Shown piece by piece: positions 38,032-43,737 of a stretch of 64,000 nucleotides of DNA. Both the position numbers and the translations under genes were made by a program. This stretch comes from a virus: the IMG/VR virus record IMGVR_UViG_3300038760_000071, positions 1-64,000 of that record. The stretch is one strand, 5' to 3'. Below the pieces are notes generated by a model. The model was not told where the DNA came from. It did not search any database and was given only the letters and a program-made list of their open reading frames with translations. The stretch's first letter is position 1; every line of letters begins with the position of its first letter.

Positions 38032-39525
38032 TTATGCTAAAGGCTCATATCCAAACATTGATAGCTCATTCATATCATCTTGAGCTTGATCAGCACCCAT
38101 ACCGAAAACTATAGGCGGTAAGCAAGAATTATTATCACCCACTATTTCATTATCTAAATATAAAGATGTTGCATCTTCAAAATATTGAATACCGAAATCC
38201 ATTTGTTCAATAGTAGCAGGTTTACCTCGCTCATCTAGTTCCACAATTTCAAAAAATCTTTCTGTTATTTCTTTCTCTAGAATGAACAGAGCGTATAGCA
38301 ATGACATCACTCTATCATCATGATGACTTCTCCTAGCCTTCCATGTACCGTTTGGCCATCGAACAAAATTCTTAAGCTCAGTTAAAGTTTCTATATCATT
38401 AATCTGAACTGCTCGTACATCATTAATAAAATATCGCATGTTTAATACACCCTGATATTTTGTATTAGTATGAGCAATCATACCTAGCATTATATTTTTC
38501 CTATGAGCCGCTTTATTACCATATGATACAATTTTCTCATATCCCATATCATTCGCTAACCTATCTACAACTTGTGCACCACAATTATTACGCTCAATTA
38601 ATGCCAACGGCATGCCGTAGTTACGGAGAACAGAATATACCTTAGTTGCAAATTCAAGAGGAGGTATTTTATTGCTAGTATAACAAGCAACCTGCCGTAT
38701 ATCTTTAATATCTGTTATATCTAATATTTGTATACATGATGAGTCGGCACCAACACCCTCCGCTGTATCAACACCAGCAACATAAACACGTGATGGGTCT
38801 GCCTCTTCCCATATCTTATAATGACCATCATCTAAAATAATTTTTGGATCTCGAGTCTTAGAAACCATCTCCTCAAATAAATCATCATCAATTGATGATT
38901 CACCTGTTGATAAAAATTCGCAATTAAATTCTTGTCTCCACGCATCATTTGATCCAATTGCCTGTCTAGTAGATTTAACCCAATCATCATCTCTATCCGG
39001 CACTTCATGCCACATAATTTTATCATGCGCCCAGCCATTTTCACCATCCACTGCACCCTTATATAATGTATGAAATAGATTATCATTACCATTTGCGGTA
39101 CTACATACAAATACCTTGGATTTCTTCGACGATGTAATTACTGGAAAAACTGACTTCCAAAACTCCTCAATTAGGTGAGTGTTATGGGAGAGAATACCGT
39201 TAGTATAATACTTATGCGTCCTCTCAACCTCAACAAAATCATAAACCTTCTCTTCACGACCAATATCAATAATATCAACAACCTCACATAGACCATCTAC
39301 AGTTTTAATTCTATGACCTATTGAATCACATGCAAGAATAACATCCCCAGCTGCATCAATAAACCCATGGTTTTTAGATACGTGTATATAATCACCGTTA
39401 TCTAAAACAACTTGAAATAGCTTCTTCTTTGAATATTCAGCAATACCCTTAAAGTCTCTCCAACCCTCATCTGTTTCTATTTCCCATTCATCATTAGGAA
39501 TGAATCTTTCTATATCTTCTCGCAT
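38032..39525 (-). CDS. terL: Terminase large subunit fragment 3: split-intein C-half (aa 1-115) plus C-terminal ATPase part and nuclease domain (382 aa)
   Basis: ..YYTNGILSHN|THLIEEFW..STANG..QEFNCEF..GVDTAEGVGADSS..HDDRVM. Confidence 0.93.
   Translation of the reverse strand: MREDIERFIPNDEWEIETDEGWRDFKGIAEYSKKKLFQVVLDNGDYIHVSKNHGFIDAAGDVILACDSIGHRIKTVDGLCEVVDIIDIGREEKVYDFVEVERTHKYYTNGILSHNTHLIEEFWKSVFPVITSSKKSKVFVCSTANGNDNLFHTLYKGAVDGENGWAHDKIMWHEVPDRDDDWVKSTRQAIGSNDAWRQEFNCEFLSTGESSIDDDLFEEMVSKTRDPKIILDDGHYKIWEEADPSRVYVAGVDTAEGVGADSSCIQILDITDIKDIRQVACYTSNKIPPLEFATKVYSVLRNYGMPLALIERNNCGAQVVDRLANDMGYEKIVSYGNKAAHRKNIMLGMIAHTNTKYQGVLNMRYFINDVRAVQINDIETLTELKNFVRWPNGTWKARRSHHDDRVMSLLYALFILEKEITERFFEIVELDERGKPATIEQMDFGIQYFEDATSLYLDNEIVGDNNSCLPPIVFGMGADQAQDDMNELSMFGYEPLA
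39181..39525 (-). other. Split intein B, C-fragment (115 aa)
   Basis: Block B-like SKNH, block F KVYD, terminal HN followed by Thr. Confidence 0.9.
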
Positions 39526-40685
39526 AAGTCTTCTTTTGTTATTATCTTAAAAGCATAATCATTCTCTCTACACCACAATCGAGCTGCTTCAAACTTCGAC
39601 TGATTCAAAGGTTGATTTACAAACTCACGTGGCTTTACCTCGTATAATACTTTATTTACCTGATCACAAAAATCGACAATGTAAACTCGTTCCTTATTAT
39701 CATATGTGTAAGGAATTCGAATTAATTCATAATCTAAATGAGGATTATTTTCATGAAACATTACCTCCCAACTACTACGATAATTATTAAGTCCAGTTAA
39801 CTCTGAATATAACTTTTTATTGGAATATCTGTTGTTTGTATTTGGTGTAAATTCTCCGGTTAAAATCTTATTCCTCATAACATCGCTCATCTTTTTATAT
39901 ATTCCCCTAGCTCTATTTTTTTTTGTGAGTTTATCTCTCTTATCTTTTGTCCACGTCTTCTTATTTGACGTAGATATCTTGCTTTTTGTTGTTTCGCTAT
40001 GATGGTATCCCCTACGAGATTTCACTCTCCGCTCTTTAACATCACCAGATTGCAAATAAGACAAATCACGATCCTTCCCAATAGTACTCAAAACATCACT
40101 AATACATCGCTTCTTACTACACGTTTTATTCAAGAAGAATGTATTCCTATTTTTAAAGCTGCAATAATCACCACATATACAGTATATTGAATCATTACAC
40201 ATACTTGCAAATTTATATTTAATATCCTCAATACCTTCTGTATGTTTAGATATATTGTGAATTAAGTCCTTATCATTTAGCAATGATGTATAGGCTGCTC
40301 GTTGAACATAGTCAGATAATCGTAGCATCGTCTCATCCGGAGGCATTGATATACCATCTTCAAAGATACCATCTTTTAATCTATCAATAAAGGATGCAAT
40401 TGACTTTCCACTAAACGACACACCACCTTTAACATAGCCACGTTTATAGCTAATAAACTTCAAGTCTGGTAGGTAGTCGACATCATTAACTATATGATAT
40501 AACTTTTGACCGAGTGGTAGCTCATCTAACGTAGGTGTATCTCTATAATACTCATTTATAAAATTATAAACCTTCTCACCATCTTCGTATTTATCATACC
40601 ATGCTCTATAATATGAGTTTTTATTAAGCTTCTTATCCTCAAAGAAATCAACTATACATGACTGCATATAACGTTTATCGATCAT
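39510..40685 (-). CDS. Free-standing putative homing endonuclease (NUMOD3-like plus TnsA-like PD-(D/E)XK nuclease)
   Basis: GYHHSETTKSKIS; YRSSWE..RIPY..YIVDF..EVKP..KFEAA; sits between the two halves of intein B. Confidence 0.75.
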   Translation of the reverse strand: MIDKRYMQSCIVDFFEDKKLNKNSYYRAWYDKYEDGEKVYNFINEYYRDTPTLDELPLGQKLYHIVNDVDYLPDLKFISYKRGYVKGGVSFSGKSIASFIDRLKDGIFEDGISMPPDETMLRLSDYVQRAAYTSLLNDKDLIHNISKHTEGIEDIKYKFASMCNDSIYCICGDYCSFKNRNTFFLNKTCSKKRCISDVLSTIGKDRDLSYLQSGDVKERRVKSRRGYHHSETTKSKISTSNKKTWTKDKRDKLTKKNRARGIYKKMSDVMRNKILTGEFTPNTNNRYSNKKLYSELTGLNNYRSSWEVMFHENNPHLDYELIRIPYTYDNKERVYIVDFCDQVNKVLYEVKPREFVNQPLNQSKFEAARLWCRENDYAFKIITKEDLCEKI

Positions 40686-40693
40686 ATATTTAT

Positions 40694-41161
40694 TTATGTC
40701 TTTTGGATAATATTCTCAATACTTCTTGTGACTATCTCCCCTGTATTTTTATTACGTAGCCTTACTGTAGTATCTTTAGACACACACTCAATGAAAGCCA
40801 TCTCATCAATCACTAAGCATTGATGACTTAATACACCGTTAGCGTAATATGTATGAGTTTTCTCAACTTCTAGCAGCTCGTATACTTTACTATCATCAGT
40901 GTAAGTGGCAATATCGGTAATTTCAATACCACCATATAATTTATTTTTAATTAAAAGATCTTTTGCATAAACGATCTCCTCGTTTTCTGCTAACAGTTTA
41001 TGTAGAGGTGTACATATTAACTCTTTATCACTAGAGAGTGTGAGTTTAATTTTTGAAGGGTTACTACCGATTATAAGCCCTTTAAAGTCTCTGAAACCGT
41101 CGTTTGTTAGTACTTGATATTTGCTATTTTTAAAGCATTTATATTTTGTTAAGTCTGCCAT
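40694..41161 (-). CDS. terL: Terminase large subunit fragment 2: IntC-A (114 aa) + Walker B extein CLVIDEMAFIE + IntN-B (30 aa)
   Basis: ..YYANGVLSHQ|CLVIDEMAFIE|CVSKDTTVRLR..; junction codons checked in the DNA. Confidence 0.9.
   Translation of the reverse strand: MADLTKYKCFKNSKYQVLTNDGFRDFKGLIIGSNPSKIKLTLSSDKELICTPLHKLLAENEEIVYAKDLLIKNKLYGGIEITDIATYTDDSKVYELLEVEKTHTYYANGVLSHQCLVIDEMAFIECVSKDTTVRLRNKNTGEIVTRSIENIIQKT
40697..40786 (-). other. Split intein B, N-fragment (30 aa)
   Basis: Block A CVSKDTTV, then stop after 30 aa. Confidence 0.85.
40820..41161 (-). other. Split intein A, C-fragment (114 aa, ends His-Gln)
   Basis: Block B CTPLH, block F KVYE, terminal HQ followed by Cys. Confidence 0.88.
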
Positions 41162-41165
41162 CTTA

Positions 41166-41990
41166 CTATTTTATTTTTGTTTCGAGATTTGTACCTCTTT
41201 TTGGGAAGCATTTAGGACAAGCGGGTCTATGACCAATAGATAAATCATGATAAAATCTAGCGTCACACTCTTGACATACCCATTTATATTTTTTATACAG
41301 TGCAACTCCGTTATACGTCTCATCCAACTTAACGTTATAATCTGTCTCAATTTTAGAGATTAATTTAACTTGCTTTGTAAAAATGGCGCGCTGCGTAATA
41401 GCCTCAGATTGCATTGGGTTATCTACACCATATTTTTCATTCAATGTCTTTCGAGCTTTATTTTTATAATCTTCAGTCTGAAAAAAGTGATCAACACCGT
41501 ATTTTAAGTTATTATGTTTAACTCGTGTTGTCTTAAGCTTAGATATATCGCTACACGTTTTATTACTCCATGTATTAATCACTTTACTTTTAAAATCCTC
41601 GCTCTGCTGGTATATCTCGCTCCCGTATTTCTCCTGGTTGGTTGCCTTACTATGTGATTGACCGGCTTTTGATTGCAACCAAGACGTTGCACCATATTTC
41701 TCTATATTAGTTAATTTAATCTCCTCAACATTATATTTATTACTACATTTACGACAACAAAACTTACCATACCCGGATTTAAAATCCCGGTATTTGAGAA
41801 TACTATTACACTGCATGCATGTTGGTGTCTCTGATATATTATGACACACATTATACGCATTACGAGCAAATGTTAACTCAGAGTCATATAGTTCATGTTG
41901 CTTTATAAATGTCACTTCATCACCGTGGAGATATTTCGGAAAAACCTTAGGTATATTTGTAAGCGTTAATAGTACACTATTCACATCCAT
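41166..41990 (-). CDS. Homing-endonuclease-type DNA-binding protein, apparently lacking its C-terminal nuclease domain
   Basis: CxxC pairs and four (E/L)KYG repeats; ends CPKCFPKRGTNLETKIK*. Start moved to ATG 41990 (TAAATA-5nt-ATG). Confidence 0.65.
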   Translation of the reverse strand: MDVNSVLLTLTNIPKVFPKYLHGDEVTFIKQHELYDSELTFARNAYNVCHNISETPTCMQCNSILKYRDFKSGYGKFCCRKCSNKYNVEEIKLTNIEKYGATSWLQSKAGQSHSKATNQEKYGSEIYQQSEDFKSKVINTWSNKTCSDISKLKTTRVKHNNLKYGVDHFFQTEDYKNKARKTLNEKYGVDNPMQSEAITQRAIFTKQVKLISKIETDYNVKLDETYNGVALYKKYKWVCQECDARFYHDLSIGHRPACPKCFPKRGTNLETKIK

Positions 41991-42042
41991 AATAGTATTT
42001 ATTACCCAATTGGGTAAAGCCACCGGTAAAGGTATTATATTT

Positions 42043-43737
42043 TTAATTGTCCAGGAATATAGGAAGTAACTCCCCACCTTCAAATTCAGCTGCTAACTCC
42101 TCCATGGAGCAATCAAATGTTAACCCAGTTTCTTTATCTTTCAACGTTATTATTGTCTCCCCGTCGACACAGTTGACGGATTGGCCACGGGCTGCTGACC
42201 CGGTCGTAGTAGTAATACCTATACGAGAGCCATTCTCAAGGGTCATGGACGTTTTGGCATATTCTTTAACAGGCGGCTTAAGCCAGTTAGGTAGTTCCTC
42301 ATATGCCATCCGAACTCTTTGAAATATTTCAATCGCAGTAGCTTCTTTGTTAGCTACTAGCAATATTCGCTGATCTGCATTAAAGCATGCTTGCCAGAGG
42401 ATATAAATTGTCATCATTGTCGAGTTGTGAGTAGGTATATACTGATTACCTGCGAGAAATTGCGAATCTTCACTATCAACAGTTATACACCTAACAGGAA
42501 CCGATTCAACAAGCTCTATATTCTTTATAAAGTGATACTGCCCCCTTATTTTAAAGTTATGCTTCTTCTCTTGATGCTTTATTCTTTTCTGCTTAAACGA
42601 TAATAGAGCTACATCTTCAATTGGTTTAAATGTTATAGATGAGCATGGCTTACATTCCACACCATTAAGTGTCGGTATATAGTCTTTTAATGTAACCTTA
42701 TACCCTAGACTTTCAGTTAACTGCTTTACCTGTCTAGTGAGATTCTTATTTGTGTTATAAAACTGACATGTACCTGCTTTATTTATATAGCCATCACTAT
42801 CAACTAAACCTTGCAGTAACTGTAATCGTTGCTCTCTACTCGCTAACATATAATCAACGGGTATATGTTTATTATTGAGTAAGTTATTATGTCTTAATAA
42901 CGAACTAAGACTCTTTGTTTGTATATCAGACTCAACAGTAGGGCGAATAAAATAATTTTTCGAATTGTAGTTTTTAATAATAAGCTTATCAAATTGCTCT
43001 ATCTTATCAAATATTTTAATCTGTTCGTCTATATCTCTATGACCAACTGTTATTGTACCGGTAGCAGATGTACCATCACCTAACCACAAGCCTAGGACAT
43101 AGGGATGTATAGGTAATTCTTTCTCTATACCCCCAACACCATTAATACATGTTGGTATTCTGTGATTAGGCTCAGGTCTCTTCTTACCACTATATAGTGT
43201 GTCTAAAATATCTCTTGTTGTCTTAACTGACCCACTACACTCCTTTCTACGATCACCCCTCGTCTGAGTAAACCATAAATGATCACCATCTGCAACTATC
43301 TCCTCCCCGTTATCAAATGTTACTTTATAACAGTCACGATCATATAATACATCATGCGCTTTTAAAACACTACACTGATCACCCTTATTATCGTATATAA
43401 CATCACCAGATTTAATAGACCCCATATCCATCCACCCGGTTGGTGTTGGTATTGGTGTATCTAATGCTAGTGCCTTACCTATCTGTCTACTTGCTAGCTG
43501 TATAAAGAATCGATTATCTCTCATCTTACGGATGGCTCGCTTTTGAGCAGGATATAGCTTAATAGTCTCACGCCCACGATCAAGATTAATAATATAGAAA
43601 TAATTTTCAGCAAAATAGAGTATATTCTGACTCGCTTTCTTAAGCGCGTTCACTTGCGATGTAGTATATTCACCTTTCCAGTTAACATTTGGTAGGTTTT
43701 TGTTACCCATGTAGAACATATTACTTTGCTGAGCCAT
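42043..43737 (-). CDS. terL: Terminase large subunit fragment 1: N-terminal ATPase with cis intein in Walker A and C-terminal IntN-A
   Basis: YFAENY..LYPAQ..SRQIGK|intein|STMM..LPNWL..ENGS..AARGQSVN|CVDGET. Confidence 0.95.
   Translation of the reverse strand: MAQQSNMFYMGNKNLPNVNWKGEYTTSQVNALKKASQNILYFAENYFYIINLDRGRETIKLYPAQKRAIRKMRDNRFFIQLASRQIGKALALDTPIPTPTGWMDMGSIKSGDVIYDNKGDQCSVLKAHDVLYDRDCYKVTFDNGEEIVADGDHLWFTQTRGDRRKECSGSVKTTRDILDTLYSGKKRPEPNHRIPTCINGVGGIEKELPIHPYVLGLWLGDGTSATGTITVGHRDIDEQIKIFDKIEQFDKLIIKNYNSKNYFIRPTVESDIQTKSLSSLLRHNNLLNNKHIPVDYMLASREQRLQLLQGLVDSDGYINKAGTCQFYNTNKNLTRQVKQLTESLGYKVTLKDYIPTLNGVECKPCSSITFKPIEDVALLSFKQKRIKHQEKKHNFKIRGQYHFIKNIELVESVPVRCITVDSEDSQFLAGNQYIPTHNSTMMTIYILWQACFNADQRILLVANKEATAIEIFQRVRMAYEELPNWLKPPVKEYAKTSMTLENGSRIGITTTTGSAARGQSVNCVDGETIITLKDKETGLTFDCSMEELAAEFEGGELLPIFLDN
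42046..42171 (-). other. Split intein A, N-fragment (42 aa)
   Basis: Block A CVDGETII, then stop after 42 aa. Confidence 0.88.
42424..43473 (-). mobile_element. Class 3 intein (350 aa) with LAGLIDADG homing endonuclease
   Basis: Starts ALALDTPI (Ala1); WCT triplet (DHLW, VRCITV, PTHN); LGLWLGDG and LQGLVDSDG motifs; +1 Ser. Confidence 0.93.

Follow-up and report, generated by a model that had tools for sequence, protein, structure and literature searches.

A probable role of residue-level strand charges in partner choice by two tandem split inteins of a phage terminase gene

In an uncultured T4-like phage, the gene for the large terminase subunit (terL) is split over three open reading frames (ORFs) of the minus strand, with a split intein, A or B, across each of the two breaks. 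The locus lies in a 64,000-nucleotide stretch (the window), positions 1 to 64,000 of the 80-kb IMG/VR virus record IMGVR_UViG_3300038760_000071, which is ~38% complete and whose TerL shares no more than 34% identity with the TerL of any isolated phage. Each intein consists of an N-terminal fragment (IntN) and a C-terminal fragment (IntC), and since two of them break terL, the three proteins must be joined by tandem trans-splicing. This raises the question of how each half recognizes its own partner and rejects the homologous half of the neighboring intein. The original prediction, made from the letters of the window, was that mirror-image net charges had co-evolved to keep the two inteins orthogonal. 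Our analysis indicates that charges probably do contribute to partner choice, through a residue-level code on paired strands and not through a co-evolved net-charge mirror.

Anatomy of the fractured terL gene

We interpret this terL as a fractured gene in which two atypically split inteins, each pairing a short IntN with a long IntC, flank the Walker B peptide, and in which each holds a free-standing gene of putative endonuclease type between its halves (Table 1). Conceptual excision of A, B, and a third, contiguous intein yields a splice product of 565 amino acids (aa), which aligns with the uninterrupted TerL of related viral contigs at 77% identity with 0-1 gaps. This nearly gap-free alignment fixes the exact junctions as QIGK/S, QSVN/C, and AFIE/T (a slash marks a splice junction) and shows that the host protein is restored upon removal of the inteins.

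IntN-A and IntN-B both begin with Cys, directly after QSVN and AFIE, respectively. Intein A carries the block B motif TPLH and the C-terminal motif SHQ/C, and intein B carries SKNH, with Ser replacing Thr, and SHN/T, as expected of class 1 inteins. Both IntC sequences give weak matches to Pfam Intein_splicing that fall short of the curated cut-off. IntC-A additionally matches CatC of the consensus atypical intein Cat (PDB 6DSL; chain 6DSL_B, phmmer E 7e-5), and in an AlphaFold2 (AF2) model it has a predicted local distance difference test score (pLDDT) of 85-93 and Foldseek matches that are all inteins, the best being Cat 6DSL (template modeling score 0.83). The assignment of intein B to the Hedgehog/intein (HINT) fold comes from profile similarity only. 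In AF2, IntN-B is a hairpin plus helix (strands at 132-137 and 143-147, helix at 148-153). Both inteins are broken after the first helix, into IntN and IntC of 42 and 114 aa (A) and 30 and 115 aa (B). Judged by sequence, A and B are class 1 split inteins of the atypically split kind, and trans-splicing is predicted for both. The independent contigs L001, L002, L170, L171, and L178 retain this layout of three pieces, at 52-83% identity, and three- and four-piece terminases recur across many uncultured phages among the metagenome relatives.

Charge complementarity in the window and across the family

Scripted counts of charged residues agreed exactly with all four hand counts behind the original prediction. 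IntN-A has 11 D/E and 2 K/R, and the first 40 aa of IntC-A have 8 K/R and 3 D/E; IntN-B has 6 K/R and 3 D/E, and the first 30 aa of IntC-B have 11 D/E and 4 K/R. With segments of long ORFs from the window itself as background, both acidic elements stand out (IntN-A in the 1.8% tail, the IntC-B head in the 3.2% tail) and the basic elements do so only mildly (11-12% tails). The homology that the prediction had claimed for the two inteins is real, IntC-A and IntC-B being 29% identical over 114 aa (alignment A1), and the charge pattern is also as described: cognate halves are complementary, and each of the two wrong A/B pairings would bring together halves whose net charges have the same sign.

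For a view of the whole family, ~250 loci were gathered from IMG/VR and JGI metagenomes, with 80 of ~216 relatives kept from IMG/VR. Some relatives carry a third, Cat-like split intein, C. Single-sequence locus searches with IntC-B and IntC-C gave few relatives and a profile search was needed; IntN tails and IntC starts were extracted with two small profiles, and the IntC head was taken as everything from its first residue up to the FKG motif. In a set of 101 unique cognate pairs, the net charge of IntN is anticorrelated with that of the IntC head (Spearman -0.64). The anticorrelation persists when the pairs are clustered at 70% identity (67 clusters, -0.58) or at 50% (23 clusters, -0.51), and it is also present in the site-A lineage alone (-0.74, n=18). 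The correlation of IntN charge with the remainder of IntC is only -0.27. An acidic IntN with a basic head is found in 33 of the 101 pairs and the reverse in 29, while only 2 are basic in both.

Covarying columns of the putative strand pair

The charge complementarity can be traced to individual alignment columns of IntN (N) and IntC (C). Charges covary at N11-C15 (r -0.76), N12-C13 (-0.75), N13-C15 (-0.62), N14-C13 (-0.61), N13-C24 (-0.60), and N9-C17 (-0.56), compared with a lowest value of -0.55 in 200 pairing shuffles. The signal holds within both major clades and includes several independent charge switches, for example, RDK with K/R versus RNK with D/E. N9-C17 and N11-C15 have the common register i+j=26, as expected for two strands paired in antiparallel fashion, and AF2 places strands at IntN 6-11 and IntC 15-19, where the covarying columns lie. 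Taken together, these patterns suggest that the IntN hairpin 9-14 most likely runs antiparallel to the first strand of IntC, 13-17, with complementary charges in each cognate pair.

In intein A, the putative contacts are TLKDKE against KYQVL, with D12 and E14 facing K14 (residue 14 of IntC-A, alignment column 13). In intein B they are RLRNKN against EWEIE, with R9, R11, and K13 facing E17, E15, and E13. Pairing IntN-A with IntC-B would set D12 and E14 against E13, and acid against acid at N12-C13 is seen in 1 of 67 clusters. Pairing IntN-B with IntC-A would set N12 against Lys and R9 against Leu, each seen in 2 of 67. Because the wrong pairings would be combinations almost never met in natural cognate pairs, strand-pair electrostatics probably help to reject the neighbor, and this rejection would include that between IntC-A and IntN-B, which are both on the middle polypeptide. 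Our proposal, to which we assign a probability of roughly 0.6, is that residue-level strand charges help each half to reject its neighbor and that the mirror-image net charge is a by-product of combining two clades, not a local co-adaptation.

Co-resident inteins and points against the proposal

We scored pairings by the log-odds of the six contacts, training without the clusters being scored (leave-own-cluster-out). In 9 loci, all cognate combinations were positive and all co-resident non-cognate combinations, A versus C included, were negative, with the six columns having been picked on the same data that were later scored. When six co-resident sets, some of them related, were tested by permutation, the contact mismatch of co-resident inteins was -3.77, compared with -1.78 +/- 0.96 for random family pairs, and 2.3% of 5000 draws were as low; since the sets are few and partly related, this enrichment is suggestive only. 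The choice of columns and the relatedness of the sets both count against our proposal, and so do the following points. The pairing of IntN-C with IntC-A, which in relatives with A and C would meet in cis, scores only -0.8 to -3.3 while their net charges attract, so other specificity determinants must exist. The strand pairing put forward above derives from covariation alone. When the natural IntC-A-extein-IntN-B chain was modeled, AF2, which is insensitive to charge mismatches, docked IntN-B onto IntC-A (pLDDT ~80), with the 11-aa extein as a loose loop (pLDDT <50) and a predicted template modeling score of 0.71 for the model. Cis docking in the middle protein is thus sterically possible in the model, and with no steric bar, discrimination must come from side chains, which AF2 cannot judge. 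From the literature, fragments of Cat, an intein of the same atypical kind, are reported in a review to associate via clustered hydrophobic residues (PMC11766414), and a charge-swapped NpuDnaE IntN still spliced with wild-type IntC.

Two appendages are candidates for specificity elements of a non-electrostatic kind. Residues 31-42 of IntN-A (42,046-42,081) form a conserved GG-E-LLPIF tail past the helix, and the head of IntC-B (39,490-39,525) has a conserved (E/D)-R-(K)-F-I motif that is shared with the P-loop inteins.

Clade origin of the net-charge mirror

A quick IQ-TREE tree of 85 IntC representatives places the site-A clade (support 96) and the site-C clade (95) in a half of the tree with Cys+1, and the site-B inteins (90) next to a large P-loop clade (95) in a half with Thr/Ser+1; the deep split itself has a support of only 83. 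The polarity label is clustered on this tree (0 of 500 shuffles as low). In the Cys+1 clade an acidic IntN is commonly combined with an IntC head that is neutral to basic, while the Thr/Ser+1 clade, mostly at P-loop sites, more often combines a neutral-to-basic IntN with an acidic head. With A and B in separate clades and polarity clustered by clade, the mirror image appears to be the meeting of two old lineages. An origin of A and B as recent intragenic duplicates was also considered and is rejected on this tree.

Net-charge alternation along the gene was also tried as a general rule and rejected: 15 middle proteins comprise 8 with like-charged halves, 4 with unlike-charged halves, and 3 neutral, and the co-resident net-charge product is reached by 8% of random draws, with no significant enrichment.

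Alternative explanations

The claim that the main determinant of A/B orthogonality is a mirror-image net charge that co-evolved within this gene draws on the like-charged wrong pairings described above. It also draws on L001 and L002, where A (-/+), B (+/-), and C (-/+) alternate in polarity (IntN/IntC head) and both middle proteins have like-charged halves, and on a polarity of B that seems slightly stronger in the presence of A (+1 to +4/-4 to -6) than in its absence (0/-1, +1/-4). Against this stand the deep separation of A and B on the tree and the relatives that lack B, in which the polarity of A is unchanged (-6/+2 in L004, -11/+3 in L177, -8/+3 in L091). Intein C, moreover, has the same polarity as A, and yet the two co-reside without B in L003, L091, and L173 and in proteins P0003-5, P0007, and P0010, so that the IntC-A head, which is basic, and IntN-C, which is acidic, are parts of a single polypeptide. 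The polarity of A is the same in the A-only and the A+C relatives, one wrong pairing in L178, a divergent A+B relative, is not like-charged (+1 versus -1), and the net-charge product gave no significant enrichment. Judged from these comparisons, the net-charge mirror is inherited and is neither necessary nor sufficient for coexistence, and its co-evolution as the main determinant is very unlikely. What survives of the original prediction is that charges likely matter at the contacts, as the family anticorrelation and the covarying columns suggest; the mirror as a co-evolved device does not survive. Its premise that electrostatics drive association has been established as electrostatic capture for canonical split inteins, whereas for the atypical class the review cited above reports hydrophobic binding.

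That binding, together with the NpuDnaE result, would also fit a reading in which charges serve only solubility or association rate and orthogonality comes from hydrophobic and shape divergence at ~29% identity. In its favor, 15 of 16 split inteins that were assayed together showed mutual orthogonality that had not been designed (PMC7090010), the 12-aa IntN-A tail with LLPIF and the DIERFI head of IntC-B are lineage-specific, and A and C coexist although their net charges are compatible. However, strong column-specific charge covariation, with several independent switches within clades, shows selection on these contacts, where the mismatch between co-resident inteins exceeds that of random pairs. 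The residual cross-talk in the 16-intein matrix was mostly among atypically split fragments (PMC7090010), which makes short IntN peptides the risky case, and charge engineering did make NpuDnaB orthogonal (bioRxiv 10.1101/546465). We regard a role of charges limited to solubility or rate as unlikely. It is also conceivable that the arrangement is decaying or non-orthogonal, with cross-products (a skipped Walker B, a cyclized peptide) tolerated or the gene dead, as might be read from the apparent loss of the nuclease part of the gene inside intein A, from the fragmentary record, and from the cis docking that AF2 allows. Yet the catalytic motifs are all intact (Cys1, the TPLH and SKNH blocks, SHQ/C, SHN/T), the three-piece layout is conserved in the five contigs named above, the splice product aligns without gaps to intact TerL, and no second, intein-free terL-like copy was seen in the record, itself a 38%-complete fragment. 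This makes decay an extremely improbable explanation, and the strand-charge proposal is the one we retain.

Relation to known systems

Inteins A and B resemble AceL-TerL, GOS-TerL, and Cat (6DSL) in their lopsided split, with an IntN of ~25-42 aa and an IntC of ~105-115 aa, and in having a terminase as host protein. They differ from these in standing two in tandem in one gene, in the Gln at the end of A, and in the Thr+1 of B and its grouping with P-loop inteins. The closest counterpart of Cat looks to be intein C of the relatives, which is placed after RQEFxS, while A and B flank Walker B. GOS-TerL accepts the AceL-TerL IntN, which indicates that close homologs at one site cross-react.

The fractured genes of Dassa et al. 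(2009; PMC2677866) share the order N-extein-IntN, free-standing endonuclease-type gene, IntC-C-extein on a single strand, and one of them is a terminase with an unusual split position. In contrast to those, the gene described here has two such cassettes and a contiguous intein, with intervening genes that are DUF7487 and TnsA-like instead of GIY-YIG or Vsr-like. The same study found complementary local charges, in both polarities, among canonical split inteins.

Charge-based orthogonality is a published design idea with mixed experimental support, engineered charge networks having given orthogonality in NpuDnaB and not in NpuDnaE (bioRxiv 10.1101/546465); in the present locus the idea is encountered in a natural tandem. 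Shared with the engineered inteins are charge reversal or mismatch on paired strands against cross-reaction and the ligation of three fragments. Those inteins, however, were designed and canonically split, whereas A and B are natural, atypically split, inherited from two clades, and would use another strand pair. The order IntC-peptide-IntN of the middle protein, with its 11-aa insert, is also that of split intein circular ligation of peptides and proteins (SICLOPPS), except that the two halves here do not belong to one intein and that TerL has to emerge as a linear product and not as a ring. A search of the available literature found no described natural tandem of atypically split inteins, which is not proof of absence.

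Features of the locus and its relatives

Table 1. Coordinates of terL, its inteins, and the intervening genes in the window
Feature	Position	Strand	Description
terL piece 1	42,043-43,737	-	N-extein (N-terminal ATPase part) and contiguous LAGLIDADG intein, IntN-A at end; Pfam LAGLIDADG_3, Hom_end
Contiguous intein, 350 aa	42,424-43,473	-	Inside Walker A (QIGK/...THN/S); LAGLIDADG endonuclease domain
IntN-A, 42 aa	42,046-42,171	-	Net charge -9; preceded by ...QSVN, runs to stop codon
IntN-A residues 9-14 (TLKDKE)	42,130-42,147	-	Covarying strand/hairpin positions
orfX, intervening gene of intein A	41,166-42,083	-	DUF7487 and zinc ribbon (Pfam), 305 aa
terL piece 2	40,694-41,161	-	IntC-A (114 aa), 11-aa extein, IntN-B (30 aa)
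IntC-A, 114 aa	40,820-41,161	-	C-terminal SHQ, then Cys+1; head (to FKG motif) net +3
IntC-A residues 14-18 (KYQVL)	41,108-41,122	-	First strand, covaries with IntN 9-14
Middle extein CLVIDEMAFIE, 11 aa	40,787-40,819	-	Walker B
IntN-B, 30 aa	40,697-40,786	-	Net charge +3
IntN-B residues 9-14 (RLRNKN)	40,745-40,762	-	Covarying positions
orfY, intervening gene of intein B	39,510-40,685	-	TnsA-like endonuclease domain at C-terminus
terL piece 3	38,032-39,525	-	IntC-B (115 aa), then remainder of TerL
IntC-B, 115 aa	39,181-39,525	-	C-terminal SHN, then Thr+1; head net -6
IntC-B residues 13-17 (EWEIE)	39,475-39,489	-	Covarying positions
C-extein	38,032-39,180	-	Remaining ATPase domain and nuclease domain; Pfam Terminase_6N, Terminase_6C

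The two intervening genes are co-oriented with terL and are of putative endonuclease type. DUF7487 and the zinc ribbon are the only domains found in orfX, and compared with its 572-aa homolog in L003 this copy appears truncated, with the nuclease part apparently lost. The gene inside intein A varies: it is a DUF7487 protein in the window, L003 (1961-3676), and L090 (5523-6770) and a GIY-YIG/SegE-like endonuclease in L001, L004 (3923-4723), and L007. orfY is kept together with intein B in L001, L002, and L009.

The SHQ end of IntC-A (40,820-40,828, minus strand), with Gln replacing Asn, is common to the entire site-A clade of ~20 lineages, and it is therefore a stable trait and not a lesion. 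The Walker A intein, which has no bearing on the charge question, begins with Ala instead of Cys, has a block F Cys (RCITVD), and ends in THN followed by Ser+1, a pattern reminiscent of class 3 (WCT) inteins. It is also present in L003 and L078 and missing from most relatives.

In other phages, close relatives of intein B interrupt the P-loops (GxxGxGK/C...) of AAA/ClpX-like ATPase genes (L142, L150, L162, L117, L146, L121, and others), with two in one gene in L150; the family changes host genes at P-loops. Three tandem split inteins, giving a four-piece TerL, are found in L113, L110, L145/L148, L001, and L002, and L090 has a P-loop split intein, its IntC broken across frames, beside a site-A split intein. 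Intein-free TerL alleles (L013, L018, and L047 versus L062 and L078) have Cys at the site-A +1 position (QSVNCLVIDE) in some cases and Leu in others, and Ser or Pro, not Thr, at site B. Such residues could be traces left by lost inteins, or they could mark sites already suited to homing.

Significance

Joining a protein from three fragments requires split inteins that are orthogonal, and those with a short, synthesizable IntN are in shortest supply and also the most prone to cross-react. The orthogonality problem has been solved repeatedly by phages, and the window and its relatives offer natural sets of two and three inteins. The present analysis corrects the simple rule, as the polarity of net charge is not enough by itself to explain or predict which inteins can share a gene, and it yields a concrete hypothesis, within reach of a few mutations, on the residues that carry specificity. 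A broader idea, which we hold tentatively and consider somewhat doubtful, is that a transferable charge code of the whole family (IntN 9, 11, 12, 13, and 14 versus IntC 13, 15, 17, and 24) sets partner specificity, with mismatch being selected when inteins share a gene. If this were true, orthogonal sets with a synthesizable IntN of at most 30 aa could be read or programmed from a few residues.

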